Below the pieces are notes generated by a model. It was not told the DNA's origin and searched no databases. It saw nothing but the letters and a program-made list of their open reading frames with translations. Both the position numbers and the translations under genes were made by a program. A stretch of DNA of 61,748 nt from an uncultured Acidimicrobiales bacterium (GTDB lineage Bacteria > Actinomycetota > Acidimicrobiia > Acidimicrobiales > Hopanoidiivorantaceae): assembly GCA_964514465.1 (NCBI GenBank), contig CAZERQ010000192.1, positions 1-61,748 of the forward strand, in the 5' to 3' direction. Positions 2-14,845 of the stretch are shown piece after piece; within the stretch, counting starts at the first letter, position 1; each line of letters begins with the position of its first letter.

Positions 2-2080
2 GATTGCACAGCCAGGAGTTCAACGACATACCGCGTTGACGACGATGGAGATGCGAACCTCACCGGCACGAGTGTCGTGCTGAAAGGCAAGGTCAAAGTC
101 GCCGGCACCAACGGCAAAGCAGATAGATATGTGACCTGCTCATATGATCTCGTGCTGTCAGATAATTCGGATAACCTAGAGGAGCAGCCTCCGCCCGATG
201 ATGGAAATGTCCATGATGCTCCTTTGGCTTCTGCGAACAAGCAGGTTGCTGTGAACTTCCGGTCGTTGTTCGCACCGGGGGTAGATATTGATGTGCCGTC
301 TGATTTGGACAGCGCTTTCGTGGGTGCACCATTTAAGGTTGAGTTCTATCGTGTGGGCAACGACAACGAGTTTTGCACAAAATTCGGTCTTGTGACTTAT
401 GTGCTTCGGTCCGGGGGGTCTGTGACGATTGAAGGCGATAGGGTTTCCTTGGTGGGTAAATATATTGATTCCGGAGAATCTGTGGCGTGTTCTTATACAG
501 TGGTGTTCCCAAGTGGCATCAAGCCTCCCACTTCGGCCGGGGATCCTGCGGGCAGTGCAGTCAGAGTAAGGGCACTGCAACCGGGTGCTGACGCTGACAG
601 CCATGTGGGAGTCGCCTCGCCCGATGTCGAAGCGGATTATGATTTTCCGAGTTATTTTTCCCCCATCGTCAGTTTCGCTGGCGCGGGCATTGCTGAGATG
701 GCAGGCCTGGTTTCTGTTGAGGTCAGCTTTGGGAATGACACGGCAGCAGGCGCGCAGTCGGGCTGTTCTGAGCCTGCATCAGCAGTCTATGTGCTAACTG
801 GAGGCAGTTGGGGGTTGCAGGACAGCACCTTTGAGCTGGTCAACAGCCCCACAGGTTCGGATCTTGGGTGTTCATATTCAGTGAGCTTGCCCAAAGTTGT
901 TGAATCAGGCGACAGTGTCTTCGTCCAGCAGACTAGAGGCGACATCTCGGTGAGTTCCACCAGCCCGCTGGAAGCTGTTTATGCACCCGGGTATACTCTC
1001 CCTACCACTGTGTCGGTGCCCCAGATTGACGGGGAAACCGCAGGCATAAAGAAATTTGCAAACTCCAATATTGCGCTTGATTTTGAGATTGAGCCTGGGT
1101 CGCCGGGTTGCCCAGACGAGGAAAAATTCAGATATACTGTCAATGATGAGGGCACCGTGGTTGCGGCTAATGGAACTGAAGTCAGACTGATGAAAGCACC
1201 GCTAGTGCAGATCACCCAAGATTCACAAATTGTCTGGTCCCTAGCTGCGGGCAACTGCCGATATGAAGTCAAGCCAACTTCTGATGCGGAAGAGTTGGCA
1301 TTGTACTTTCCAAGAAAGAAACTAGTTGTAGATCATACGTTTTCTTCGATCACAATAAAGTTTGCAGTGATGTTTGAGGTGGATGTGGACATAGACATTC
1401 CAATGGAACTAAATGCAGGTGTCAACATTTTCTCTGGAGCCACCATAACCGTTGATTTCGAAACTGTATCTGACCTTAATCCTGGATGTGAAAACTCAAG
1501 TGCAACTTTCACGGTGCAAAACGACGGAAGTTTCTCTAGTTTAAGTATTGATTTGGTTGACTATCCTGCAGGGGGAAGTTCACGGTGCTTCTACATAGTT
1601 AAATTTATGGATGTGGTAACAATTAATGAATATAGACTTGAACTTCAGATAAATTCGACAGTGGCAATTGATAATACAGTGCAATCACCGGAGATAGAAG
1701 CCGATTATGCTAGTGTGTTTGCTCTCCAAATCACGTTTGAATTACCTGATAGGGATGGTGCAAATAGCTTAGCGGGCACACTTTTGGTTGCAACATTTGA
1801 TCGAGATCCAAGATCACCTTCTGGATGCATTTCACGGACACTAGTTTATCAAGTGCAGAGCAATGGAGATGCAGAACGGTTGTCTGGTCAAAACAATTAT
1901 CTACTGGATCGACCGACCGAGCAACTCTTCACACCAGGGACGCTGACGACATGTGAATACATTCTGTCTAGCTTTGTGTCTAGTAGCGCTAGCATAGTTT
2001 TCGTGAAAAATGAAGCCTTTAGATTCAGTGCTTTGACACCAAGTGGAATCGCTGAATTCAGGGATACTAACACCGGATAA
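2..2080 (+). CDS. Secreted or surface tandem-repeat protein, 5-prime truncated by the window edge; divergent paralog of the downstream giant repeat protein
   Basis: The frame of ORF 77..2080 has no stop back to nt 2 (DCTARSSTTYRVDDDGDANLTGTSVVLKGKV precedes the listed GTG). About 6 degenerate ~110-aa units each carry a Cys pair (CTKF..CSYTVVFP, CSEP..CSYSVSLP, CPDE..CRYEV, CENS..CFYIVKF, CISR..CEYILSS). Composition is very AT-rich. Stop TAA at 2078-2080. Confidence 0.7.
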   Translation, partial: DCTARSSTTYRVDDDGDANLTGTSVVLKGKVKVAGTNGKADRYVTCSYDLVLSDNSDNLEEQPPPDDGNVHDAPLASANKQVAVNFRSLFAPGVDIDVPSDLDSAFVGAPFKVEFYRVGNDNEFCTKFGLVTYVLRSGGSVTIEGDRVSLVGKYIDSGESVACSYTVVFPSGIKPPTSAGDPAGSAVRVRALQPGADADSHVGVASPDVEADYDFPSYFSPIVSFAGAGIAEMAGLVSVEVSFGNDTAAGAQSGCSEPASAVYVLTGGSWGLQDSTFELVNSPTGSDLGCSYSVSLPKVVESGDSVFVQQTRGDISVSSTSPLEAVYAPGYTLPTTVSVPQIDGETAGIKKFANSNIALDFEIEPGSPGCPDEEKFRYTVNDEGTVVAANGTEVRLMKAPLVQITQDSQIVWSLAAGNCRYEVKPTSDAEELALYFPRKKLVVDHTFSSITIKFAVMFEVDVDIDIPMELNAGVNIFSGATITVDFETVSDLNPGCENSSATFTVQNDGSFSSLSIDLVDYPAGGSSRCFYIVKFMDVVTINEYRLELQINSTVAIDNTVQSPEIEADYASVFALQITFELPDRDGANSLAGTLLVATFDRDPRSPSGCISRTLVYQVQSNGDAERLSGQNNYLLDRPTEQLFTPGTLTTCEYILSSFVSSSASIVFVKNEAFRFSALTPSGIAEFRDTNTG

Positions 2081-2084
2081 TCTG

Positions 2085-5000
2085 ATGTTTGAGGGAAATG
2101 TGCAGTGCTGCTCAAGAGTTGCTGGCTGGGTGTGGGCAGGCGCGATATTCATCGCAGGGGTTCTGGCAGTGTTATTTTGGCTGGGATTTGGTGTTGGTTC
2201 TGCCTCAGCTCAGGAACAAACAGGTGAGCCTGATGTTGCCACCACGTTTATTCCTGAAATTACAATTACCGTGCCCCAAGTGGATATCAATGGAGATGGA
2301 ATAAATGATTTCAGTGGCACATTTTTTAGACATAGGATTATGGTAGCGCAAGATTCTGATGCTGGCTGTGGCGGGCTTCTTCATGGTGAGCGTTTTTCTT
2401 CGCTCAGTTGGTCGCTCAAAGTGGTGCCCAGCGGTTTGGTCGAATCTCATGGTCTCAATTGGCGCCAAAGTTTAATTGGTCGTCCTGCTGGGGTGGAGAA
2501 GGAGTGTATTTATGAAATTAGATGGCCGACTTTTCAAGCAGGTGAAGCAGTTATGGTGCGACGGTCTGGTCCTGTTGCGACGGTAAGCTATTCTAATAGG
2601 GTGGTTAGTGCAGATTATGTGGCTGGGACTGTTGCGTCGTTTAGTCCCGAAGTTAATATTTCAGTGCCTGATGTTGATACCAATGGTGATGGTGTGAATG
2701 ATTTTTCTGGCACAAATTTTGAGGTGTTTTTCCGCCGGTTGGCCGGCTCCAACTCTGCTTGCTCCCATAGTGAGTACGGAATGTATACAGTTCAAAGTGA
2801 TGGCAGTGTGGCCGTGCATGGTGAGGCGCCTGTGCTGGTGGATCGTACAGTTGAAATGTCTTCAGAAGGATGTTCATACAGTGTAAGATGGCCGACGGTG
2901 GTTGGTTTCGTTCTCCAGCCCGGTGCCAGCGATGCAGTGAACTACACCGCCAGGAGCATCTCTGCTTCTTATGCATCTGGTACGGTACTATCGTTTAGTC
3001 CCGAAGTTAACATCTCAGTGCCTGAAGTCGATGTTGACAACGATGGAGTGAATGATTTATCTGGGACAGAGTTTGTCATAAAGTTTGATGGATCAGGTTC
3101 AATCGCAGATGGCTGCTATTCTTTTGCGAACGCGACTTATGTTGTGCAGGATAGTGGGGCAGTTGAAGTGTCTGGCGAAGTGCCTGTGCTGGCATTCAAA
3201 ACAGTGGGCGAAGACTGGCATTGTAGCTATGAATTGACTTGGCCGACTGTTCCTGGTTTGGTGCGGAAATCTGGCTACACGACTGAGGTGACAAGTGAAC
3301 GTTATGGTCGTTACTCAAGTATTGCGTCTGCAAGTTATGTGGCTGGTTCTGTGGTTTGGTTTAGTCCAGATGTTGACATTTCGGTGCCCAATTTGGATGC
3401 AGATGGCAACAGTGAGAACGACTTTGCAGGGACTCAGTTTTTGGTGCAATTTAGGCGATCACCAAAATCTGGAGCTGAATGCACTGCCTTTGCAGGCGGG
3501 ACTTACGTGGTGCAAAATAGCGGTGATGTAACTGTATCTGGCGATGAACCTGTCTTAGTGGATCGCTCAATAGGGATGAGTGCACTGTGGTGTGAGTATA
3601 ATGTGTCGTGGCCGACTGTTGCTGGTTTAGTATTGGATATACATGAGCGAAAAATTGTGGGCTTTAGTTCTCTAAATTCACTTGGGTTCCCGAGACCAGC
3701 CTCTGTGGCTTCTGCTAACTACAGAGCGGGAGATGTTATTTCGTTTAGCCCTGATGTCAATATTTCGGTGCCTGCTTGGGATGCCAACAACGATGGTGCG
3801 AATGACTTAGCCGGCACACTATTTGCTGTTGAGTTTAGACGTGCTTTCGGCCATGGTGATCGGTGCACATTATCTGCGAACGGGGTTTATGTTGTGCAGG
3901 ACAATGGTGAGGTTGTGGTGTCGGGAGCAGAGCCTGTCTTGGTGGATCGCACAGTTGGAGAGACTGAAGGGTGTGAGTACGAAGTGATTTGGCCCAATAT
4001 TGGGGGTTTGGAACACTATTATATTTGGCAGCCAAACACGACACGTGTGCATGCGGCTAGAAAAACAGTTTCCATCAGATATAATTTATCAACAAGAACA
4101 ATATTTTTTCCTAGAATAACGATTACAGTTCCACGAACAGATGCTGATAGTGATGGAACAAATGATTTTTCGGGGACTCGATTTGTGGTGGAGTTCAGTC
4201 CAGCGACTGGTTCGCCCAGTGGCTGTTCGGGTTCGCAAGAAAATCATTTAAGTGGAAGTTATACGGTCCAAGATAGCGGGTTGGTAACTAGGGATCAAAC
4301 TGGGTCTGGCTGGCTAAATTCTGGTACTGGTTGGATGGTGGACCGTCCGGGGGGGTTGACATCCAGGTGTTCATATGATGTTATGTGGCCGACAGTTGAA
4401 GGTTTGGCGCGCCAATCTGGTGCCACAATGATTCTAAAAGCTGCAGGCAGGGAAATTTCAGCAGTTTATGTTGCTGGGTCAGAATCTACTTCCTTGGTTG
4501 AAGAGTTGGAAGAGCAAACTTCAAGCTCTAGTGATGCTACAGTTGCATCAAGTTTTAGTCCCATTGTGGAAATAAATATTCCATGGTTGGACGCAGACAA
4601 TAACAATGTAAGCGACTTTTCTGGCACTCAGTTTATGGTTTCGTTTAAGCGGGTGTTTGGTACCAATGCTGTGTGCACCGATTCTTTGAATGGAATTTAT
4701 GTGGTGCAAGATGACGGTGATGTGATGGTGGCTGGCACGGACCCGATCTTGGTGGACCGCCCAGTTGGTGTTACTACAAATTGCATTTATGTGGTTGGGT
4801 GGCCTGCGGTGGAAGGTTTGATATATTCACATACAATTTTTTCCGCATCTTCGGTGAATGCTTTCTCAAAAACTGCAAGGGCCACTTACCAATCTACTGT
4901 GGACACGACGTTTAGCCCAATTGTTAATATCATGGTCCCACAAGTAGATGCTGACAGTGATGGGGAAAATGATTTCGCTGGAACTCAGTTTGTGGTGAAA

Positions 5001-8000
5001 TATACACTTACCATTAATAGCAATTGGCGTTGCGGCAACAGTGCGCTAACAGGGACTTATGTGGTCAGAGATAATGGTCAAGTTACGGTGTTAGCTGCTG
5101 AACCAGTGTTAATCAACCGCCCAGCTAGGCAGCATAGCGATTGCGAATATAATTTAACCTGGCCAGTTGCGCCTGGTCTAGAACTCCAAATAGGTGCTTC
5201 AACTTCAGTGAGTGCATCCAACAGGGCCATTTCTGCAAGTTATGTGGCATATGTGGCACCGGCCACAACATTTAGTCCTAAAGTGGTCATTACAGTTCCG
5301 CAATTGGATGCTGGAAACGGTGGAGTCAATGATTTTTCTGGCATCAGGTTTGTTGTATTGTTCAGGCGTGTGTTTGGTACTAGCGCAGAATGCACAAACT
5401 CCGCGAGTGCGACATATGAGGTTCAAAATAGCGGTGATGTGTCTGAGACCAGCGCAGCTGTGCTGGTGGATCGTCCTGCCGGGTTGGCCTTAAGCTGCAT
5501 CTATGCTGTGACATGGCCTAGTTTTGTTACTTTGGTGCCACTATCTGGAGCCACCACTTCGGTAAGCGCTTCTGCTAGAACTGTTTCGGCTAGCTATGGG
5601 GCGCTGTTAAATTACGACAGTTTTTTTCCGACTGCCATCATTTCTGTGCCTCAGATAGATGCAAATGCTGATGATGCCAATGATTTTGCGGGCACTGAAA
5701 TTCCAATATCTTTCTCTCCCACAGCTTTGTCCCACCGAGAATGTGGTTATACCTCGAATTATATTGTTGGGTTTCAAATTCCGACAGGAAAATATGTGGT
5801 CAAAGAAAGCGGCACAGTGGCAGTTGTCAGTGCACATGTGCGTCATGACCTGGTGAGTTATGTCACCGGGGCAAGTTCTATTTGTGTGTATGATGTAATC
5901 TGGCCCGACGTGGCTGGCTTAGTATTGCAGCCTGATGCCACAGCCACAGTGAGCTACACGGTGGAGACTATCTCTGCCAGTTATGTGGCCGCCACTGTCA
6001 CAACGTTTAGCCCCACTGTGAACATTTCAGTTCCGCAAACGGATGCTGGAGGGGATGGTGTGAACGATTTTGCGGGAACAAGTGTTGCTGTGACGTTCAG
6101 TCGCGTATCTGACTCCAGTTCTGATTGCTCTGCTTCAGTGAGCGGGGTTTATGTTGTGCAAAACAATGGGGATGTGGAGTTAACTGGAACGGCACCCATG
6201 TTAGTGGATTATCCGGCCAGGTCGGCGGATGGTTGTGTTTATGATGTGGCATGGCCAGATGTGACTGGTTGGGACATTCAACCTGGGGCATCCAACACTG
6301 TGCAAGGTTCTGCCAGAATTGTTTCTGCTGGCTTTGCGGTTTCTGAGGAGACTGCTGCCACCACGTTTAGCCCGATGGAAGATATCACGGTTCCCCAGTT
6401 AGATGCTGATGGAGATGGCGTGAATGATTTTTCTGGAGTTAAGTTTCAGGTGGGATTTGCTCAAAATTGGCAATTGAGTGGTGGGTCAGGCCATTGTTCA
6501 GATACCATAGTGAAAACGTATGTAGTGCAGGACAGTGGTGATGTGGTGGTTTCGGGTACTAAACCTGTATTGATTGATCGCTCGGCAGGAGCAACTTTAG
6601 GCTGTGTCTACAATGTGGTATTATTGGCACCTGATGGCTTAACTCGTCCAAACCTTTATCCATTTAGTTTTTTGAGTGCTGCGAACAGGACTCTTTCGGT
6701 GCATTTTCTTGCGACTCCTGCATCGACATTCATCGCAGATGTGTCTATTTCAGTTCCGCAGACTGATGCCAATGGGGACGGTAACAATGATTTTTCTGGC
6801 ACCAGATTTGAAGTGACGTTCAGGCGTGTTTTCGGATCAAATGTGGGATGCACAGATTCTGCGAGCGGGACCTATGTCGTCAGAGACAACGGCGTCGTGA
6901 CGGTGGCTGGCGCAGAACTAGTTTTGGTTAATCGCCCGGTTGGTGGAATAGTGAGGAAGTGCGAGTATGCGGTTGTTTGGCCGACAATTGCTGGGTTTAC
7001 TCGTAAGCCTGGTTCCACCACAACGGTTTCTTCCTGGTTGTCCTATGTCAACTCTGTAGTGGCAGCTGACAAGACTGCTTCAGCATCGTATGAAGCAACT
7101 GATCCTGTGGTTGACACTGCTGCCACTTCGTTTAGCCCGACTGTTGATATTTCGGTTCCGCAGCTGGACGCCGATGGTGATGGTGTGAATGATTTTGCGG
7201 GGACTGGGTTTGTGGTGACGTTTAGGCGTGTGTTTGGTTCTGATGTTGGTTGCACGAGTTCGGCTAGTCGCACCTATGTTGTGCAGAATGACGGCACGGT
7301 GTCGGGGGCAGATTTGTCTTTGGTGGATCGCCCTGCTGGCGTGAGCTCTGGGTGTTCGTATGCTATAACTTGGCCTTCTGTTGCTGGTTTGGTGCGCCAG
7401 ACCGGGGCGACCTCGAGGGTGAGCGCATCAACGAAATCTGCTTCTGCAAGTTACAGTGCGATTGCTGCAACTTCGTTTACGCCTGATGTGGTGATTTCGG
7501 TTCCGCGGTTGGATGCTGACAGGGATGGTGTGAATGACTTCTCTGGCAGGCGTTTTGTGGTGACGTTTAGGCGGGTGTTTGGCTCTGATGCTGGTTGCAC
7601 GAGTTTGTCCAGCCGCACCTATGTTGTGCGGAGTGACGGCACGGTGTCCGGGGCCGGCCCGTCTTTGGTGGATCGCCCTGCGGGTAGTACCACGGGTTGC
7701 ATCTATGTTGTGGGTTGGCCGGCTGTGACTGATTTGGTGCGCCAATCCGGTGCCACCGCTACGGTGAGCGCGTCGGCCAGGTCCGCTGCGGCGACATATC
7801 AGACCGGCTCTACCTATGTTGCGCCTGTGCCTGCAGCGGAGGAACCTGAAGTTGAGGAGCCAGAGGTCGGGGAGCCTGAGACTGAGGAACCCGAGCCAGA
7901 GTCGCAGGAGCCTGCCCCCGCGGAGCCTACCCCGGGGGTTGAGGAGCCAGTGGTTGAGCAGGCGCAGAGTCCGGTCGCGGTCGGTTCGGCAGGTGGTGGC

Positions 8001-8699
8001 GCAGTTGGCGGAGGCGGTAATGCTGGCACCGCAAACGCTGGTGTCGGGGCATCTGGTGGCGGCGTGAATGCCGGAATTGGATCTGGCTCCGGTACTGTGG
8101 CCGATTCGGGCGTGGGTGTGTCTGGTTCGGTTCCGGGTGCGCCCGTGCCCGAAGTCGGTGTGATTCAGTTGTCGCGGGGTTGGGTGATGTTGCCGTTCAA
8201 TGGGCCGTCAGGGATGACGCCGGCTGATTTCGCCTCGGCATTGGAGGGCGCGATCAATAGTGTGTGGGTTTGGGATCTGTCTGCTCAGCAGTGGCAGGGC
8301 TGGACAGCCAGCCGGGGTTCCTTTGGTTTGACGGGTTTGGTGCCTGGTGATGTGGTGATGGTTTATGCGCCTGCTGGCGGGACGGTGGTGTATAGCCCGG
8401 CTGACCTGTTGGGCCACCGGGTTGGTGTGAACAGCTGGACTTTGGCGCCGACCGGGATTTCGCTGGTGGTCTATGGCGGCGGCACTGCAACCTCGGCTTC
8501 TGATGTGTTTGCTAGCTATGCGAATTCTGCTGTGGTGGTGTATCTGTGGGACAGCCAGAACCAGCGCTGGGAGTATCACCTGCCCGGCCGCCAGCCGCTG
8601 TCGTCTGTTCAGGTGCCGTGGTTCTCAGACATCAACCCGGGCGATGCCATGTTCGTCTATAACATCTCACCCACAGCGGTCACCATCCCCTGGGAGTAG
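2085..8699 (+). CDS. Giant secreted tandem-repeat protein: signal peptide, 15 repeats of ~115-125 aa with DxDxDG-like loop and Cys pair, Pro/Glu-rich and Gly-rich linker, Trp-rich C-terminal double module
   Basis: One uninterrupted 6.6 kb ORF. The N-terminus is WVWAGAIFIAGVLAVLFWLGFGVGSASA|QEQ, signal-peptide-like. The motif FSPxVxISVPQxDAxGDGVNDFAGTxFxVxFRRVFGSxxxCTxSASxTYVVQxxGxV....LVDRPxGxxxxCxYxVxWPxVxGL recurs 15 times. Start is ambiguous: ATG 2085, GTG 2100 preceded by GAGGGA, or the listed GTG 2043, which overlaps the upstream gene. Confidence 0.85.
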   Translation: MFEGNVQCCSRVAGWVWAGAIFIAGVLAVLFWLGFGVGSASAQEQTGEPDVATTFIPEITITVPQVDINGDGINDFSGTFFRHRIMVAQDSDAGCGGLLHGERFSSLSWSLKVVPSGLVESHGLNWRQSLIGRPAGVEKECIYEIRWPTFQAGEAVMVRRSGPVATVSYSNRVVSADYVAGTVASFSPEVNISVPDVDTNGDGVNDFSGTNFEVFFRRLAGSNSACSHSEYGMYTVQSDGSVAVHGEAPVLVDRTVEMSSEGCSYSVRWPTVVGFVLQPGASDAVNYTARSISASYASGTVLSFSPEVNISVPEVDVDNDGVNDLSGTEFVIKFDGSGSIADGCYSFANATYVVQDSGAVEVSGEVPVLAFKTVGEDWHCSYELTWPTVPGLVRKSGYTTEVTSERYGRYSSIASASYVAGSVVWFSPDVDISVPNLDADGNSENDFAGTQFLVQFRRSPKSGAECTAFAGGTYVVQNSGDVTVSGDEPVLVDRSIGMSALWCEYNVSWPTVAGLVLDIHERKIVGFSSLNSLGFPRPASVASANYRAGDVISFSPDVNISVPAWDANNDGANDLAGTLFAVEFRRAFGHGDRCTLSANGVYVVQDNGEVVVSGAEPVLVDRTVGETEGCEYEVIWPNIGGLEHYYIWQPNTTRVHAARKTVSIRYNLSTRTIFFPRITITVPRTDADSDGTNDFSGTRFVVEFSPATGSPSGCSGSQENHLSGSYTVQDSGLVTRDQTGSGWLNSGTGWMVDRPGGLTSRCSYDVMWPTVEGLARQSGATMILKAAGREISAVYVAGSESTSLVEELEEQTSSSSDATVASSFSPIVEINIPWLDADNNNVSDFSGTQFMVSFKRVFGTNAVCTDSLNGIYVVQDDGDVMVAGTDPILVDRPVGVTTNCIYVVGWPAVEGLIYSHTIFSASSVNAFSKTARATYQSTVDTTFSPIVNIMVPQVDADSDGENDFAGTQFVVKYTLTINSNWRCGNSALTGTYVVRDNGQVTVLAAEPVLINRPARQHSDCEYNLTWPVAPGLELQIGASTSVSASNRAISASYVAYVAPATTFSPKVVITVPQLDAGNGGVNDFSGIRFVVLFRRVFGTSAECTNSASATYEVQNSGDVSETSAAVLVDRPAGLALSCIYAVTWPSFVTLVPLSGATTSVSASARTVSASYGALLNYDSFFPTAIISVPQIDANADDANDFAGTEIPISFSPTALSHRECGYTSNYIVGFQIPTGKYVVKESGTVAVVSAHVRHDLVSYVTGASSICVYDVIWPDVAGLVLQPDATATVSYTVETISASYVAATVTTFSPTVNISVPQTDAGGDGVNDFAGTSVAVTFSRVSDSSSDCSASVSGVYVVQNNGDVELTGTAPMLVDYPARSADGCVYDVAWPDVTGWDIQPGASNTVQGSARIVSAGFAVSEETAATTFSPMEDITVPQLDADGDGVNDFSGVKFQVGFAQNWQLSGGSGHCSDTIVKTYVVQDSGDVVVSGTKPVLIDRSAGATLGCVYNVVLLAPDGLTRPNLYPFSFLSAANRTLSVHFLATPASTFIADVSISVPQTDANGDGNNDFSGTRFEVTFRRVFGSNVGCTDSASGTYVVRDNGVVTVAGAELVLVNRPVGGIVRKCEYAVVWPTIAGFTRKPGSTTTVSSWLSYVNSVVAADKTASASYEATDPVVDTAATSFSPTVDISVPQLDADGDGVNDFAGTGFVVTFRRVFGSDVGCTSSASRTYVVQNDGTVSGADLSLVDRPAGVSSGCSYAITWPSVAGLVRQTGATSRVSASTKSASASYSAIAATSFTPDVVISVPRLDADRDGVNDFSGRRFVVTFRRVFGSDAGCTSLSSRTYVVRSDGTVSGAGPSLVDRPAGSTTGCIYVVGWPAVTDLVRQSGATATVSASARSAAATYQTGSTYVAPVPAAEEPEVEEPEVGEPETEEPEPESQEPAPAEPTPGVEEPVVEQAQSPVAVGSAGGGAVGGGGNAGTANAGVGASGGGVNAGIGSGSGTVADSGVGVSGSVPGAPVPEVGVIQLSRGWVMLPFNGPSGMTPADFASALEGAINSVWVWDLSAQQWQGWTASRGSFGLTGLVPGDVVMVYAPAGGTVVYSPADLLGHRVGVNSWTLAPTGISLVVYGGGTATSASDVFASYANSAVVVYLWDSQNQRWEYHLPGRQPLSSVQVPWFSDINPGDAMFVYNISPTAVTIPWE
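2241..7800 (+). repeat. Array of 15 in-frame coding tandem repeats (period ~345-390 nt)
   Basis: Repeat heads: TTFIPEITITVPQVDINGDGINDFSGT, ASFSPEVNISVPDVDTNGDGVNDFSGT, LSFSPEVNISVPEVDVDNDGVNDLSGT, through TSFSPTVDISVPQLDADGDGVNDFAGT and TSFTPDVVISVPRLDADRDGVNDFSGR. An acidic/Ser-rich spacer (SESTSLVEELEEQTSSSSDATV, ~nt 4480-4560) splits units 1-6 from units 7-15. Confidence 0.9.
7131..7800 (+). repeat. Two most similar adjacent repeat units (units 14 and 15), exact 345-nt offset
   Basis: TTT of FSP at 7131 and of FTP at 7476. Long identical nucleotide runs are shared, e.g. gtggtgacgtttaggcg, ggttgcacgagtt, cgcacctatgttgtgc, gacggcacggtgtc, tctttggtggatcgccctgc. Confidence 0.85.
8160..8699 (+). 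repeat. Dispersed direct repeat, copy A (coding: C-terminal W-rich double module of the giant protein)
   Basis: LSRGWVMLPFNGPSGMTPADFASALEGAINSVWVWDLSAQQWQGW...WEYHLPGRQPLSSVQVPWFSDINPGDAMFVYNISPTAVTIPWE. Pairs with 10063-10602. Confidence 0.85.
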
Positions 8700-8784
8700 C
8701 CGCCCCTGCAGTGCCGCAGCGTTGCTCGGCAATCTGTCTGAGCCAGAGGTGTCTGGTCGGGGAATATATTGTGGGGGAGGGGAA

Positions 8785-10602
8785 ATGTTTTTTACGAATT
8801 TTAGGTGCCAAGCATCTTGGACTACACTATTTTCTTTGAAATTACTGGCCCACAAAATCATCTCGGAAATCACCATGAAAAACACAGAGAACACAAACAA
8901 TGTCACCCGGCAAAACCAAATCTGGCCGAAGCTCAAAACTTTTTGGCATCCCACGAAGCGTTGTGCGCTGGTCACCCCCGCACTGGCATCGGCGCTCGTG
9001 TCGTTGCTCGCACTGGCGCTGGTGGCAATCGGGCTGTCGGCCAATCCCGCTTCGGCCCAAGACCAACCAGCCGACACAACCTTTGACCCCGTCATACGTC
9101 TCAGGTTCCCGTCATTCAACGACAACGGCGACACCACCAACGACTTGGCGGGCACCCAGTTCACGATCTCCTTCAGCCCGGTGACCGGCTCCCACCCCGA
9201 CTGCACAGAATCAGCGAGCCGAACCTACACGGTGCCCAACCAGGGCCTGCTGGAGCCGTCATCAAGCACGGGATTTCCCCTGGTGGATCGCCCCGCCGGG
9301 GTCGCTTTTGACTGCGTTTATGCCGTGGCTTGGACGGATCTGCCCGAGCTGGATGTCAGCGTGTCGCTCGGCAACAACTTTCCGCAAAACTCTGTGAGCG
9401 CATCGGCCGAGACGATTGCGATCATCTATATGTCGGCCGCCAACCGGAGCTTCACTCCGTCCGTGAGCATTGGCGTCCCCCAGTCGGGCGGCGTTGGTGG
9501 CGGCGGCGTTGGCGGCGGTGCTGGCGTGAACGATTGGGCTGGCACCCGCTTTGAGGTCATGTTCGAGTCGGCTTCGCCGGCAAATCCCGATGGTTGCTCG
9601 GAAGCGATGGTCGGTGCCTATGTGGTGCGAGATGACGGCGAAGTGGTGCCGGATGGGACGGAGCCCAGTTTGGTGTATCTGGCTGAGGGGGAATACAGCT
9701 CGTGTTCCTATGATGTGATTTGGCCGGATGTGGCCGGTTTGGTGCGCCAGCCCGGGGCCACGACTGGAGTGAGGACTTTGCGACAGACGGCTGCTGCGGT
9801 TTATGAGGCTGAGGCGCCGGAGCCCGACACCGAAGCTGATGCCGCCGAGCCCGAGGCTGGGTCAGAGCCCGAACCCGAAACCGCCGACCCCGAGACTGCT
9901 AGCCCCGAAACCGCTGCCGACCCTGAAACCGAAACCGCCGCCCAACCCGAAAGCAACGGAGCCCAGACGGTCGCGCCAGCCCAGACAGCCGTGCCGACCC
10001 AGCTGGCCATGCCCGCCCAGCAGACCGAACCCCAGCCCGAATCGCCAGCGTTTGACATCGCAATGTTGCAGCTGCCGCGGGGCTGGACGATGTTGCCGTT
10101 CAACGGGCCTTCGGGGATGACTCCGGCCGAGTTCGCTCTGGCGCTCGAAGGTGCGGTCAACAGCGTGTGGGTGTGGGACATCGCGGGTCAGCAGTGGCAG
10201 GGCTGGGCGGCATCCCGGGGTTCGCTGGGTCTGGCGAGCCTGGAGCCGGGCGATGTGGTGATGGTCTATGCGCCGGTCGGCGGCGTGGTGGTGTATCGTC
10301 CGTCTGATTTGCTGGGCCATCCGCCCGGGACGAACAGCTGGACTTTGGCGCCGTCAGCCATCTCGCTGGCGGTCTATGGCGGCACGAGCGCGGTGGCGGC
10401 GGCCGATCTGTTGGGCGACTTTGCCGGCTCGGTGGTGGCGGTCTATCTGTGGGATGCAGACAACCAGAGCTGGGAATATCACCTTCCGGGGCGCCAGCCC
10501 CTGTCGGGCGTGCAGGTGCCGTGGTTCTCCGACATCAACCCCGGCGACGCCATGTTCGTATACAATATCTCACCCACAGCGGTCACCATCCCCTGGCAAT
10601 AG
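8785..10602 (+). CDS. Secreted 2-repeat paralog of the giant repeat protein with the same Trp-rich C-terminal double module
   Basis: Signal peptide ALVTPALASALVSLLALALVAIGLSANPASA|QDQ. Two repeat units follow (TTFDPVIRLRFPSFNDNGDTTNDLAGTQF... and RSFTPSVSIGVPQSGGVGGGGVGGGAGVNDWAGTRF...), then a Pro/Glu/Thr-rich linker and a C-terminal domain closely similar to nt 8160-8699. ATG 8785 has a GGGGGAGGGG Shine-Dalgarno 2 nt (core GGAGG 5 nt) upstream. ATG 8875 (MKNTENT...) is an equally plausible start. The listed 8473 start overlaps the previous gene and is rejected. Confidence 0.8.
   Translation: MFFTNFRCQASWTTLFSLKLLAHKIISEITMKNTENTNNVTRQNQIWPKLKTFWHPTKRCALVTPALASALVSLLALALVAIGLSANPASAQDQPADTTFDPVIRLRFPSFNDNGDTTNDLAGTQFTISFSPVTGSHPDCTESASRTYTVPNQGLLEPSSSTGFPLVDRPAGVAFDCVYAVAWTDLPELDVSVSLGNNFPQNSVSASAETIAIIYMSAANRSFTPSVSIGVPQSGGVGGGGVGGGAGVNDWAGTRFEVMFESASPANPDGCSEAMVGAYVVRDDGEVVPDGTEPSLVYLAEGEYSSCSYDVIWPDVAGLVRQPGATTGVRTLRQTAAAVYEAEAPEPDTEADAAEPEAGSEPEPETADPETASPETAADPETETAAQPESNGAQTVAPAQTAVPTQLAMPAQQTEPQPESPAFDIAMLQLPRGWTMLPFNGPSGMTPAEFALALEGAVNSVWVWDIAGQQWQGWAASRGSLGLASLEPGDVVMVYAPVGGVVVYRPSDLLGHPPGTNSWTLAPSAISLAVYGGTSAVAAADLLGDFAGSVVAVYLWDADNQSWEYHLPGRQPLSGVQVPWFSDINPGDAMFVYNISPTAVTIPWQ
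10063..10602 (+). repeat. Dispersed direct repeat, copy B (coding: C-terminal W-rich double module of the 2-repeat paralog)
   Basis: LPRGWTMLPFNGPSGMTPAEFALALEGAVNSVWVWDIAGQQWQGW...WEYHLPGRQPLSGVQVPWFSDINPGDAMFVYNISPTAVTIPWQ. The run atctcacccacagcggtcaccatcccctgg, the last 30 nt before the final sense codon, is identical in both copies. Confidence 0.85.
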
Positions 10603-10625: not shown

Positions 10626-11507
10626 ATGGGGCCTGACCAAAAGCCGCGCGCAAATGCCGACGGCACGCTGGCGGCCGTGATTGGAAGTCCGGTCGGCCAT
10701 TCGCTGTCGCCCGCCATACACAACGCCGCCTTCAGAGCGGCCGGGCTCAGCTGGCTGTTCGTGGCGTGGGAGGTGCCCGATGGGTTGGCCGGCGAAGCCT
10801 TGTCGGCCATGAAGTCGCTTGGCATGGCCGGGCTGTCGGTCACCATGCCGCACAAGACCGCAGTGGCTGAGGCGGTCGACACGCTCAGCCCCCAAGCCAA
10901 AAAACTGCAGGCGGTGAACTGCGTGGCGCGCCAGGGCAACCAGCTGGTCGGGCACAACACGGACGGCATTGGGTTTCTGGCCAGCCTCAGGGCCGATGCC
11001 GATTTTGAGCCGCGGGGCAAGACGGCTCTGGTGGTCGGGGCGGGCGGCGCGGCGCGGGCGGTCGTGCTGGCGCTGGCCGAGGCGGGGGCGGCCGGCATCG
11101 GTGTTTTGAATCGGACACCTGCCCGGGCGCAGGCTGCCGCTGATTTGGCGCCCGAGGTTGCCCGGCCCGCTGCGCCCCGTGAGGTCGGCGGATTTGACTT
11201 GGTGGTGAACGCCACGCCTGTGGGGATGGCCGGCTCAGGCGGCGCGGGTTCGCCGAGAGACTTGCCCCTGCCGGTGGACGACTTGCACCCCGGCCAGCTG
11301 CTGGTGGATCTCATATACGAACCGATGGAGACCCCGCTGCTTCAGGCTGCCCGAGCCAGAGACGTGCCGGCCATCGGAGGGCTCGGTATGCTGGTGCATC
11401 AGGCGGCGGCTGCCTTTGAGATTTGGACGCAGCAGCCCGCGCCGGTCGAGGCTATGACCGAGGCCGTCAAGTCCAAGATGTCGCCCGTGCCCGCCGCCAA
11501 CTTTTAG
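10626..11507 (+). CDS. aroE: Shikimate dehydrogenase
   Basis: GSPVGHSLSPAIHNAAF, SVTMPHK, GHNTDGIGF and a GAGGAARAV Rossmann motif. Confidence 0.9.
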   Translation: MGPDQKPRANADGTLAAVIGSPVGHSLSPAIHNAAFRAAGLSWLFVAWEVPDGLAGEALSAMKSLGMAGLSVTMPHKTAVAEAVDTLSPQAKKLQAVNCVARQGNQLVGHNTDGIGFLASLRADADFEPRGKTALVVGAGGAARAVVLALAEAGAAGIGVLNRTPARAQAAADLAPEVARPAAPREVGGFDLVVNATPVGMAGSGGAGSPRDLPLPVDDLHPGQLLVDLIYEPMETPLLQAARARDVPAIGGLGMLVHQAAAAFEIWTQQPAPVEAMTEAVKSKMSPVPAANF

Positions 11508-11517
11508 ACTTAAAGCC

Positions 11518-12144
11518 ATGGCTTTGCCGACCGACTCTGCCCGGACAGGCCCTGCGCCGTCCGAGCCTCTCGCGCCTCCCGAGCACCCCGAGCCATCCAA
11601 GCATCTCGTGCTCGTGGGGATGATGGGTGCCGGCAAATCCAGGGTGGGCCGCCAAGCCGCCAAGCTGTCGGGGCGCGCATTCGCCGACAGCGACAGCCTG
11701 ATTACCCGCCGTCGTGGTCTGTCCATCGCCGAGATATTCGAGGCGGACGGCGAAGCAGCATTCAGAGACATGGAACACGTCGCCCTGGCGCAGGCGCTGG
11801 CCACCTCGCACCCGGCCATCGTGGCGACCGGCGGGGGAGTGGTGCTGCGCGCCGACAACCGGGAGATGCTGTCGCAAGCCGAAGTGGTGTGGCTGCAGTC
11901 ATCGCCGGCGCAGCTGGCCGACAGGCTGAGCAAGAGCGTCAAGCGGCGGCCGCTGCTGGAACAGGCCCAGAGTTTTGCCGAGCTGGAGGCCAAGCTGGCA
12001 GAGATTCTGACTGAGCGGGCGGGGCTGTATGACGAAGTGGCCGACCGCAAACTGGACGTTGATGAGCTGGGGCTGAAAGCGCTGGTGCACGAAGTGGTGC
12101 GGCTGGCGCAGACGATAGACGGGCGGATGGCACGGGTCGGATGA
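11518..12144 (+). CDS. aroK: Shikimate kinase
   Basis: Walker A GMMGAGKSRVG, DSDSLI, ATGGGVV. Sits between aroE and aroB. Confidence 0.9.
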   Translation: MALPTDSARTGPAPSEPLAPPEHPEPSKHLVLVGMMGAGKSRVGRQAAKLSGRAFADSDSLITRRRGLSIAEIFEADGEAAFRDMEHVALAQALATSHPAIVATGGGVVLRADNREMLSQAEVVWLQSSPAQLADRLSKSVKRRPLLEQAQSFAELEAKLAEILTERAGLYDEVADRKLDVDELGLKALVHEVVRLAQTIDGRMARVG

Positions 12145-12154
12145 GGCGGTTGAT

Positions 12155-13225
12155 ATGACACAGCTTCAAGTTCAGCTCAGCAACCGCTCCTATCCGGTGC
12201 TGATCGGCACGGGCGTGCGCCAGGAGTTGCCGAGTGTGATTCCCGCTGGCGTGTCAAGGGTTGCAGTGGTGAGCCAGAGGAACATTGCCGACATTGCCGA
12301 GGACTGCGCGGCCATTGTCGCAGGCGCCACACCTGAGCGCGCCGTCAAGACCTTCTTCATACCTGACACCGAAGCCGCCAAGTCCACACAGACCATCGAG
12401 CAGCTGTGCCGCCAATTCGCCGACTGGGGCCTGACCCGCGCCGACCTGGTGCTGGGCGTGGGCGGCGGAGTGGTGACCGATGTGGCCGGGTTCGCCGCGG
12501 CGGTGTATCATCGCGGGGTTGCGGTGATCCATGCCGCCACCACCTTGCTGGCCCAGATTGACGCCGCCATCGGAGGCAAGACCGGCGTCAACATTCCCGA
12601 GGGGAAAAACCTGATCGGTGCGTTCTGGCAGCCCCACGCCGTCATCTGCGACACCGACACGCTCAGCACCCTGCCCGAGCGGGAGCTGCGGTGCGGCTAT
12701 GGCGAGATGGCCAAGTATCATTTTCTGGGCGCTGGGCGGATGGACGCTGACGCCGGCCAACTGGACGAACTTCCGCTGGAGCAGCAAGTGGCCCGCTGTG
12801 TCCAGCTCAAGGCCGACATCGTGAGCGCGGACGAACGCGAACAGGGCCAGCGCGCACTGCTCAATTATGGCCACACGCTGGCACACGCGCTGGAGTCGGC
12901 CGGCGGATATGCCATCTCACATGGCGAGGCGGTGGCGGTCGGGCTGGTCTATGCCGCCGAGGTCGCCAAATTTCTGGGCAGAATAGACGATGACAGGCTG
13001 GCCGAGCACCGCCGGGTGGTGTCCGGCTTCGGCTTGGCCACGGATCTGCCCGGCCTGAACCCGTGCTTTTCTGAAATTCCAAGCCAAGACCTGTTAGATT
13101 TCTTTAAGCGTGACAAAAAAGCGACCCAAGGTTTGACGATGATACTGGACGGGCCGGCCGGCCCCGAAGTTGTGAGCGGGCTTGACGGCGACCTGTTGCT
13201 GTCGGCCATGGAGCAGATACGATGA
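12155..13225 (+). CDS. aroB: 3-dehydroquinate synthase
   Basis: GVGGGVVTDVAGFAAAVYHRGV, GEMAKY, LNYGHTLAHALE, HGEAVAVG. Confidence 0.92.
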   Translation: MTQLQVQLSNRSYPVLIGTGVRQELPSVIPAGVSRVAVVSQRNIADIAEDCAAIVAGATPERAVKTFFIPDTEAAKSTQTIEQLCRQFADWGLTRADLVLGVGGGVVTDVAGFAAAVYHRGVAVIHAATTLLAQIDAAIGGKTGVNIPEGKNLIGAFWQPHAVICDTDTLSTLPERELRCGYGEMAKYHFLGAGRMDADAGQLDELPLEQQVARCVQLKADIVSADEREQGQRALLNYGHTLAHALESAGGYAISHGEAVAVGLVYAAEVAKFLGRIDDDRLAEHRRVVSGFGLATDLPGLNPCFSEIPSQDLLDFFKRDKKATQGLTMILDGPAGPEVVSGLDGDLLLSAMEQIR

Positions 13226-13695
13226 GCCCGCGCAAGTCCACCCCACGCCAGTCTGTGCTACTGCTTTCGGGCCCGAACCTGAACCTGCTGGGCGAGCGCG
13301 AACCCGAAATCTACGGCCACCAGACTCTGGAAGACCACCACCGCACCGCCAGCGAACAAGCCGAGGCGAGCGGTCTGGCGCTGGAGCACCTGCAGTCCAA
13401 CTCCGAAGCCGAGCTGATCGATGCCATACAGCAGAGCCGCGCCAAGCACGACGCCATCATCATCAACGCCGGCGCGCTGACGCATTATTCCTGGGGCATA
13501 CACGATGCGCTGGCAGCCTATGAGGGCGTGGTCGTGGAGCTGCATTTGTCGAACCCGTCGGCCCGGGAGGAGTGGCGCCACAGCTCAACCATAGCTCCCG
13601 TGGCGCACGGCACCATCGCCGGTTTCGGCGGCTATGGCTATCGTCTGGCTGTCATGGCAGTGGCCGACTTGCTGGCGGCGCCGAAAGATGACTAG
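13222..13695 (+). CDS. aroQ: Type II 3-dehydroquinate dehydratase
   Basis: LLLSGPNLNLLGEREPEIYG, IINAGALTHYS, ELHLSNPSAREEWRH. ATGA overlap with the aroB stop. Confidence 0.92.
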   Translation: MSPRKSTPRQSVLLLSGPNLNLLGEREPEIYGHQTLEDHHRTASEQAEASGLALEHLQSNSEAELIDAIQQSRAKHDAIIINAGALTHYSWGIHDALAAYEGVVVELHLSNPSAREEWRHSSTIAPVAHGTIAGFGGYGYRLAVMAVADLLAAPKDD

Positions 13696-14845
13696 CCAGG
13701 ACGGGTCGACCCCCGAGATGGCGCCCATGGACGTGCCGGCGCGCCTGGTTCGTCTGCGACAGGCACTGGCCGACCAGCCCTGCGATGCCCTGGTGATCTC
13801 GCACCTGCCGAACATACGCTGGCTCAGCGGCTTCACCGGATCGGCCGGCACAGCCATCGTCACCGACACCGAATGCGTGCTGATCACCGACGGGCGCTAC
13901 AGCTTCCAGGCGCCACGCGAAATCGCCGACGCCAAAGCCGAAGTTGAGGTTCACATATCGGCCAGCGCCAAAGAGCAATCAGCCATGATCGCCGAAGCCC
14001 TCAAAGGCGTGGAGGCTGTCGGGCTGGAGGCCGAGCACATCAGCTGGGCGCGCCAGATTTCGTGGGCCAAGCAGCTGTCGGAGTCTCCAGTGCCAATCGA
14101 GGGACTGGTGGAGGGCCTGCGCCGCCGCAAGGATCCGGGCGAGGTGGCCAGGGTTGCCGCCGCCGCCAGATTGGTGGACGAAGCCATGCGCGAGATATTC
14201 GAACTGCTGTCGCAGCCCGGAGCCAAGCTCGACCTCAGCGAACACGACCTCGCGGCCGAACTGGACTATCGCATCAGGCGCCGGGGAGCCAGCGAGTTGG
14301 CGTTTGAGACCATCGTGGCATCGGGCGAGAACTCGGCGCTGCCGCACGCCCGTCCCAGCCGTCGCCAGATCCGCCCCGGCGAGCTGTTGCTGATTGATGT
14401 GGGCGCGGTCTATGACGGCTATCGCTCCGACATGACCCGGACATTTTCGCTGGAGCAGCCCAGCCAAAAGGAAGCCGAGATTTGGCAGGTCGTGCGGGAG
14501 GCACAGCAGCTGGGAGTCGAAGCGGTGCGCGCCGAGATGTCCGCCGGCGACATCGACCAGGTCTGTCGCCAGAAAATCTCCGAGCGCGGCTGGGGCGACG
14601 ACTTCATGCACAGCACCGGCCACGGCGTGGGCCTGGAGATCCACGAGGCCCCCAGCGTCAGCGCCAAGAGCAAGGACGTCCTGGAGCCGGGCGAGATCAT
14701 CACCGTCGAGCCGGGCATCTATCTGCAGGATCTGGCGGGGGTGCGGCTGGAAGATACGTTGCTGGTTGAGCCAGACGGCTGTCGTCCGCTCACACAGACG
14801 CCCAAGTTCTTGAGCCTGAGCGAGTTCGGCGCCGGTGCCGGATAG
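13688..14845 (+). CDS. Xaa-Pro aminopeptidase/dipeptidase (peptidase M24B)
   Basis: IDVGAVYDGYRSDMTRTF, HSTGHGVGLEIHEAP, EPGIY...GVRLED. Start moved to ATG 13688 (MTSQDG...), which overlaps the aroQ stop. The listed 13634 start lies inside aroQ. Confidence 0.85.
   Translation: MTSQDGSTPEMAPMDVPARLVRLRQALADQPCDALVISHLPNIRWLSGFTGSAGTAIVTDTECVLITDGRYSFQAPREIADAKAEVEVHISASAKEQSAMIAEALKGVEAVGLEAEHISWARQISWAKQLSESPVPIEGLVEGLRRRKDPGEVARVAAAARLVDEAMREIFELLSQPGAKLDLSEHDLAAELDYRIRRRGASELAFETIVASGENSALPHARPSRRQIRPGELLLIDVGAVYDGYRSDMTRTFSLEQPSQKEAEIWQVVREAQQLGVEAVRAEMSAGDIDQVCRQKISERGWGDDFMHSTGHGVGLEIHEAPSVSAKSKDVLEPGEIITVEPGIYLQDLAGVRLEDTLLVEPDGCRPLTQTPKFLSLSEFGAGAG

Follow-up and report, generated by a model that had tools for sequence, protein, structure and literature searches.

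A tandem C-terminal domain of predicted secreted proteins in Acidimicrobiia and its possible role in surface retention

Two adjacent genes with a shared C-terminal double module

We analyzed contig CAZERQ010000192.1 (assembly GCA_964514465.1) of an uncultured Acidimicrobiales bacterium. The window (i.e., the whole NCBI contig; 61,748 bp; positions refer to the + strand) carries two tandem genes on the + strand, here called gene 1 and gene 2, which encode predicted secreted proteins with the same Trp-rich module at their extreme C-termini. Together with a paralogue located 5' of them, they form a clustered trio (Table 1). The proteins of genes 1 and 2 start with signal-peptide-like segments and carry no LPXTG motif, transmembrane segment, or lipobox.

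The two module copies (8160 to 8699 and 10063 to 10602) align without gaps over 540 nt (76.3% nucleotide and 76.1% amino acid identity), as a preliminary description made from the sequence alone had placed them. A six-frame tblastn search of the window with the module recovered only these two copies (E = 1e-119 for the self-match and 5e-94), all remaining matches having E values above 2. The module comprises 179 residues, 10 of which are Trp, and both genes end one residue past a conserved Trp. Its description as an internal duplication also held: halves A and B contain the motifs proposed for them and resemble each other both in a direct blastp comparison (29% identity over 52 amino acids; E = 2e-4) and in an hhalign comparison of family alignments (99.2% probability; E = 2e-19; 77 columns). 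The half-A part of the family profile matches both halves of distant members. The last 43 residues are nearly identical between the genes, as had been noted (41 of 43; the differences are Ser/Gly and the terminal Glu/Gln), and the 30 nt preceding the last sense codon are the same at 8664 to 8693 and 10567 to 10596. The linkers upstream of the modules are unrelated in that they cannot be aligned, though both are Pro/Glu-rich and of low complexity.

TABLE 1 Coordinates of the three paralogous genes and their parts (ORF, open reading frame; HMM, hidden Markov model; GC3, G+C content at third codon positions; SPase I, signal peptidase I)
Feature	Position	Strand	Description	Basis
Upstream paralogue	77..2080	+	ORF of 667 aa; at least 5 divergent ~118-aa repeats, without C-terminal module	ORF list, repeat HMM
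Gene 1	2043..8699	+	Predicted secreted giant protein, 2218 aa; signal segment, 15 repeats, linker, module	ORF
Gene 1, predicted signal peptide region	2043..2210	+	Hydrophobic; ...GSASA, putative SPase I site ASA/QE after residue 56	Read from sequence
Gene 1, repeat array	2247..7820	+	15 repeats of ~115-130 aa	HMM built from repeats
Gene 1, linker	7821..8159	+	P/E-rich, then G/A/S/V-rich low complexity	Translation
Gene 1, module half A	8160..8423	+	Residues 1-88	
Gene 1, module half B	8424..8696	+	Residues 89-179; stop codon 8697-8699	
Gene 2 (= P0001)	8785..10602	+	Predicted secreted protein, 605 aa; translation identical to database protein P0001	
Gene 2, N-terminal region	8785..9057	+	Hydrophobic signal segment; predicted cleavage PASA/QD	Sequence and hydrophobicity scan; inference
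Gene 2, repeats	9082..9822	+	Two ~120-aa copies, GC3 0.79 and 0.67	
Gene 2, linker	9823..10062	+	P/E/T/A/Q-rich	
Gene 2, module half A	10063..10326	+		
Gene 2, module half B	10327..10599	+	Stop codon 10600-10602	

Family size and distribution

A word-index homologue search with a single module returned no relatives, and an exhaustive HMMER search was therefore required. The scan of 1.84 billion cluster representatives identified 60 proteins at E < 1e-3, 33 at E < 1e-10, and 18 at E < 1e-30, and the family profile matches both window copies (E about 1e-118). A profile word search added 93 remoter proteins (all "hypothetical" and without a common Pfam family), including entries labeled Methanosarcinales archaeon and Dehalococcoidia. 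Among the GTDB species genomes, two carry relatives (40 to 43% identity), and both belong to Acidimicrobiales. The close members occur in Acidimicrobiia, and the remote relatives occur in other bacteria and archaea. Relatives were absent from the phage genomes, IMG/VR, and JGI metagenome contigs searched. The family signature consists of two tandem units of ~85 to 90 amino acids (i.e., G-W...F-N-G...W-x-W-D...Q-x-W...G-D), and both window copies carry it. Two candidate members, P0055 and P0056, were discarded because they are SdrD_B and RTX repeat proteins.

No domain library that we searched contains the module. With Pfam-A at E ≤ 1, both copies gave only subthreshold Kelch/FG-GAP noise; NCBIfam gave no match; and PDB sequences gave none below E = 0.1 with the single module, a 43-sequence profile, or a half-domain profile. 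SH3 matches in the PDB (E ~ 1) were regarded as coincidences of short motifs. Literature searches for a described domain of this kind also returned no relevant match. To judge from these sequence comparisons, the module is a rare, previously undescribed domain family without library annotation.

Predicted fold

The AlphaFold2 model based on the 43-sequence alignment is of high predicted quality (predicted local distance difference test [pLDDT] score, 96.5; predicted template modeling score, 0.89); a model based on the two window copies alone (pLDDT, 42) was set aside. In the retained model, each half is predicted to form a strand-strand-helix unit followed by four to five strands, i.e., the module is predicted to be a folded tandem pair of an alpha/beta domain of ~85 to 90 residues. 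The best Foldseek match of the model in the PDB had E = 0.19 and a template modeling score of 0.27, and across the PDB and BFVD no match fell below E = 0.09. Within these two libraries, the predicted fold thus has no neighbor. An identity as Kelch, FG-GAP, or EPTP was rejected on the basis of the subthreshold scores, the helices in the model, and the lack of propeller neighbors. For a Kelch/beta-propeller blade in particular, Kelch_6 scored 13 bits versus a cutoff of 25.3 bits, and there are only two units, each with a helix.

Architecture of family members

Most members have 0 to 6 residues beyond the module. Close relatives usually end one residue after a conserved Trp/Tyr, so that an aromatic residue is last or second-to-last (e.g., ...IPWE, IPWQ, ITWA, and RIYY). 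The passengers that precede the module are mutually unrelated: the arrays with a putative Ca-binding motif in the window, TSP3_bac, Ig I-set, Peptidase_S8 with Big_1, Peptidase_M23, two CAP domains, cadherin, Big_9, Kelch with beta-helix, and Cys-containing domains (L001 and P0009). Full-length members have a single hydrophobic segment, which is N-terminal, and no C-terminal transmembrane segment. Members show essentially no LPXTG motif or lipobox, two isolated matches that appear fortuitous being the only exceptions. The family behaves as a promiscuous C-terminal module on unrelated Sec-exported extracellular passengers without another recognizable anchor. The two halves are kept as a pair across the family.

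At two Acidimicrobiales loci (L001, 3807 to 12298; L004, 895 to 15737), the module-bearing protein (762 and 758 aa, respectively) is encoded directly 3' of a cytochrome c oxidase operon and is followed by one or two secreted paralogues that lack the module and carry a different Cys-containing domain, with the motif C-N-W-x-V/M. The same domain type is present at the N-terminus of the giant protein of locus L006 and in P0019.

Proposed function and alternatives

A constant terminal module on variable exported passengers is the architecture of surface retention in SLH, CWB2, GW, LysM, and SH3b proteins. Since the module described here is constant and terminal, its Sec-exported passengers vary (including an M23 peptidoglycan peptidase and an S8 subtilase), and no other anchor is evident, we propose that the double domain may be a noncovalent surface-retention or targeting module that binds the cell envelope; we assign this reading a probability of roughly 45%. 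The passenger would be exported by Sec and its signal peptide would be cleaved. The double domain would then bind an envelope component noncovalently, probably a wall glycopolymer, via its conserved aromatic residues, and thereby hold the passenger at the surface or direct it there. In genes 1 and 2, the passengers would be stalks of 15 and 2 putative Ca-binding repeats, respectively, and the Pro/Glu-rich linker would be a spacer through the wall.

The nearest functional analogue may be the GW module (SH3_8; PF13457) of Listeria InlB and Ami, which attaches Sec-exported proteins without LPXTG noncovalently to the wall through lipoteichoic acid. The likeness lies in repeated units of ~80 to 90 residues that open with Gly-Trp, in the C-terminal tandem, and in the lack of LPXTG. 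In contrast to GW modules, the module matches no SH3_8 or SH3 model, has a helix in each half, and has no SH3-like Foldseek neighbor; GW/SH3_8 membership is excluded by these Pfam and fold tests, and the resemblance would be functional only. SLH, CWB2 (PF04122), LysM, and SH3b modules are likewise constant, terminal, and often tandem, with varied passengers including M23 peptidases, subtilases, and CAP domains; an M23 peptidase joined to a wall-binding module follows the logic of lysostaphin. However, these modules have no Pfam or structural match to the present one, a putative wall binder. Models for SLH, CW_binding_1, CW_binding_2, LysM, SH3_3, and PG_binding_1 matched neither module copy (E ≤ 1) nor any of 17 family members (E ≤ 0.01 and E ≤ 0.001).

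Several observations weigh against surface retention. As regards direct support, both envelope binding and its ligand are matters that we infer from architecture and analogy. Neither Pfam, PDB sequences, nor Foldseek revealed a likeness to known wall-binding domains, and the phage searches found no module on phage proteins such as endolysins. Because remote relatives occur in archaea and Dehalococcoidia, no single wall polymer could be the ligand throughout the family. The module of P0004 is N-terminal and immediately follows the signal peptide; in L001 and P0009, the module follows the passenger without a long linker. Finally, signal peptide cleavage is only predicted, and if the N-terminus stayed in the membrane, the module would be a distal tip rather than an anchor.

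This last point leads to the main rival, a possible though doubtful one, in which an uncleaved N-terminal anchor and a repeat stalk carry a lectin-like adhesive tip with a polysaccharide, a particle, another cell, or a surface as its ligand. In favor of this rival, the domain is rich in Trp and has conserved aromatic residues, a flexible linker lies ahead of it, and the passengers include cadherin, Big_9, Ig, and TSP3 domains, as is typical of adhesin stalks. Relatives across very different envelopes, including those of archaea, also suit an external ligand better than the cell's own wall. However, cleavage is suggested by the canonical A-x-A sites, with Gln/Ala next, at the ends of the signal peptides, and the module is fused to enzymes (M23, S8, and CAP) for which self-targeting is the usual logic. 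Carbohydrate-binding modules usually accompany glycoside hydrolases, and no glycoside hydrolase is found among the identified passengers.

Self-assembly and sorting-signal functions are less likely than either an anchor or a distal tip. That the double domain oligomerizes or docks on a partner, forming a lattice or fiber in the manner of an S-layer or a cohesin/dockerin pair, appears very unlikely. The conservation of the tandem pair as a pair, the cohesin domain (PF00963) of one distant member (P0113), and the clustering of paralogues in tandem (the three window genes, i.e., genes 0, 1, and 2; L001; and L004) would fit this idea, but the neighborhoods of the window, L001/L004, L005, and L006 differ and share no conserved partner gene, and the module shows no likeness to known dockerin, cohesin, or S-layer domains. 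Least probable of all is a dedicated C-terminal sorting or secretion signal that is recognized, and perhaps removed, by specific machinery: the extreme C-terminal position, the aromatic residue at or next to the end of most close members, and the diverse passengers recall the C-terminal domain of the type IX secretion system (Por_Secre_tail; TIGR04183), which likewise forms the very end of diverse secreted proteins as a folded, beta-rich domain of ~80 to 100 residues, but the present proteins already carry Sec signal peptides, their module is a tandem pair that lies near the N-terminus or internally in P0004, P0042, and P0052, no Por_Secre_tail or other sorting-domain model matches it in Pfam or NCBIfam, no conserved machinery is encoded nearby, and the host belongs to Acidimicrobiia (i.e., Actinomycetota, presumably monoderm) with no outer membrane to cross. 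The type IX system is, to our knowledge, confined to the Bacteroidota/FCB group.

Purifying selection versus gene conversion

The preliminary description had attributed the likeness of the two modules to gene conversion or strong constraint, with signs of concerted evolution. We estimated synonymous (dS) and nonsynonymous (dN) divergence between them by the Nei-Gojobori method. Over the whole module, dS is 0.86 and dN is 0.16. The first 136 codons have a dS of 0.90 and a dN of 0.21, while the last 43 codons have a dS of 0.74 and a dN of 0.03, with ~13 synonymous differences within the 41 identical tail residues. Since only dN drops in the tail, where dS stays as high as in the remainder, these values point to purifying selection on the protein rather than recent homogenization. 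Undiminished synonymous divergence is also what the description had itself named as evidence against conversion, and it is what the comparison of tail and remainder within the module gave. The run of ten identical codons (30 nt) arose in 8.7% of permutations that kept the amino acid pattern (P = 0.09) and is not unusual.

The closest database relative of the gene 1 module is that of P0002, which is encoded on a 4.7-kb contig (L003) from another sequencing run/metagenome. Amino acid identities are 78% between gene 1 and P0002, 76% between genes 1 and 2, and 64% between gene 2 and P0002. In four-point quartet tests (13 outgroups, with bootstraps), the whole module favored the pairing of gene 1 with P0002 in 89% of bootstraps, which also argues against recent conversion. 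The data thus support common descent with strong purifying selection, strongest on the last ~40 residues; constraint, one half of the original alternative, stands, and neither recent gene conversion nor recent concerted evolution finds support.

A set of observations runs counter to this conclusion and would fit conversion between the tandem copies that homogenizes the module and above all its last ~130 nt, an explanation that we consider quite unlikely. Residues 96 to 140 pair gene 1 with P0002 in 100% of bootstraps, while residues 141 to 179 pair gene 1 with gene 2 in 99%, and at the nucleotide level the two corresponding site patterns are clustered along the module (runs test, P = 0.001). 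The mosaic signal is weakened, however, because the tail holds only 6 informative amino acid sites, because the states shared by genes 1 and 2 mostly look ancestral when polarized with outgroups (tallied over the whole module rather than the tail alone), and because the P0002 module is AT-shifted (GC3, 0.56, versus 0.71 in gene 1 and 0.82 in gene 2), which raises the number of synonymous changes private to P0002. At conserved residues, codon identity in the module (0.59) also exceeds that in the repeats (0.46; the gene 2 repeats versus the last three of gene 1) and that expected from codon usage (0.39). The repeats are a poor control, since they are not one-to-one orthologous, but the excess over 0.39 indicates that the module copies are unsaturated, so that ancient exchange or domain shuffling could have occurred; we regard ancient exchange as improbable, and any exchange between the copies would be ancient at most. 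The rise of GC3 along gene 1 from ~0.4 to 0.71 toward the module might likewise suggest conversion, but the P0002 module also exceeds the rest of its gene in GC3, so that the gradient is not specific to this genome.

The case calls for caution in general: a near-identical tail with a perfect 30-nt match resembled gene conversion, and the measured dS pointed to purifying selection. The description had further proposed that the modules, as direct repeats, could mediate deletion or fusion of the genes. An in-frame fusion through such recombination is conceivable in principle, but the process should be inefficient because the copies are 24% divergent and their longest perfect match is 30 nt; RecA-type recombination needs runs of identity.

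Repeats and base composition of the giant gene

The passengers of genes 1 and 2 consist of a repeat of ~118 amino acids (115 to 130 in gene 1) with a D-x-D-x-D-G-x-N-D motif and two conserved Cys residues per copy. An HMM built from the repeats recognized 15 of them in gene 1 (E = 1e-30 to 1e-50 each) and 2 in gene 2, and the upstream gene holds at least 5 that are divergent. The repeat belongs to no Pfam family, a summed subthreshold Excalibur match being the only signal. The motif is probably Ca binding. In the second repeat of gene 2 (9451 to 9822), a Gly-rich stretch replaces the acidic D-x-D-x-D-G loop (GGVGGGGVGGGAGVND; QSGGVGGGGVGGGAGVNDW), and the putative metal site has therefore probably been lost. 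Identity among the last two or three gene 1 repeats is 60 to 66%, compared with about 40 to 45% elsewhere, which suggests a recent 3'-proximal expansion.

GC3 in gene 1 is 0.33 to 0.46 in repeats 1 to 13, 0.49 in repeat 14, 0.62 in repeat 15, and 0.71 in the module, in strong contrast to the neighboring housekeeping genes of the window (0.77 to 0.82). The homologous giant gene of the related metagenomic contig L006 (8961 to 14534) shows the same pattern (0.33 to 0.43, versus 0.81 to 0.86 in its neighbors), and contig L003 is low in G+C content throughout. On this basis, the anomaly looks like a conserved property of the giant-gene family rather than a one-off transfer. Atypical oligonucleotide usage in giant genes was reportedly described by Reva and Tummler in 2008.

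Gene starts and neighborhood

The ORF of the upstream paralogue starts 77 bp from the contig end and is probably cut by it; its product ends in ...AEFRDTNTG. Contig L003 shows an equal arrangement, i.e., a module-less paralogue followed by a module-bearing gene. Gene 1 has an alternative ATG at 2085, directly past the stop codon of the upstream gene. Gene 2 may start at the annotated position (8785), 5' of which lies a Shine-Dalgarno-like GGGGGAGGGG, or at the ATG at 8875. The mechanical ORF start at 8473 is not credible: the 312-nt extension (8473 to 8784) runs over the end of gene 1 in a different frame and is explained as an artifact of high G+C content. The N-termini of both proteins are hydrophobic signal-peptide-like segments that end in A-S-A/Q, from which cleavage is predicted.

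Directly 3' of gene 2 lies what we take to be a shikimate-pathway cluster (10626 to 14845), its genes being named by eye from ORF sizes and translations: aroE-like (10626 to 11507), aroK-like (11518 to 12144), aroB-like (12155 to 13225), and aroQ-like (13222 to 13695), followed by a presumed pepP-like aminopeptidase gene. This order is typical of Actinomycetota. The large subunit of carbamoyl-phosphate synthase (CarB) encoded in the window is 64 to 69% identical to named relatives, all of which are from Acidimicrobiales, Acidimicrobiia, or Rhabdothermincola, and up to 91% identical to metagenomic relatives, the 91%-identical one coming from a sample other than that of P0002. These CarB matches place the host among uncultured Acidimicrobiia (Actinomycetota).

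Significance

The nearest true homologues of the module, i.e., those in OZ241989.1 ("Ca. Hopanoidivoransaceae"), OY282367.1, and P0002 to P0035, share 40 to 78% identity, the C-terminal position, and the two halves. They differ in their passengers (e.g., the Cys-containing domains of L001 and P0009), and none has been annotated or studied. What is new here is the unannotated domain family; terminal modules of surface proteins are a known kind. More tentatively, the module may found both a new fold and a new class of noncovalent surface-anchoring domain, present in Acidimicrobiia and, in diverged form, in other phyla and archaea, that would display giant adhesins and exoenzymes. The confident AlphaFold2 model without a PDB neighbor makes it a candidate new fold for structural study.

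Acidimicrobiia abound in soils, sediments, and oceans and have hardly been cultured, and we know of no described mode by which proteins attach to their surface. If the proposal is true, the module would be the counterpart of SLH, GW, and CWB2 for a major uncultured actinobacterial lineage, and a candidate tag for surface display. As a portable module on giant repeat proteins, proteases, and wall hydrolases, it would also provide a handle for predicting the surface proteome of Acidimicrobiia.

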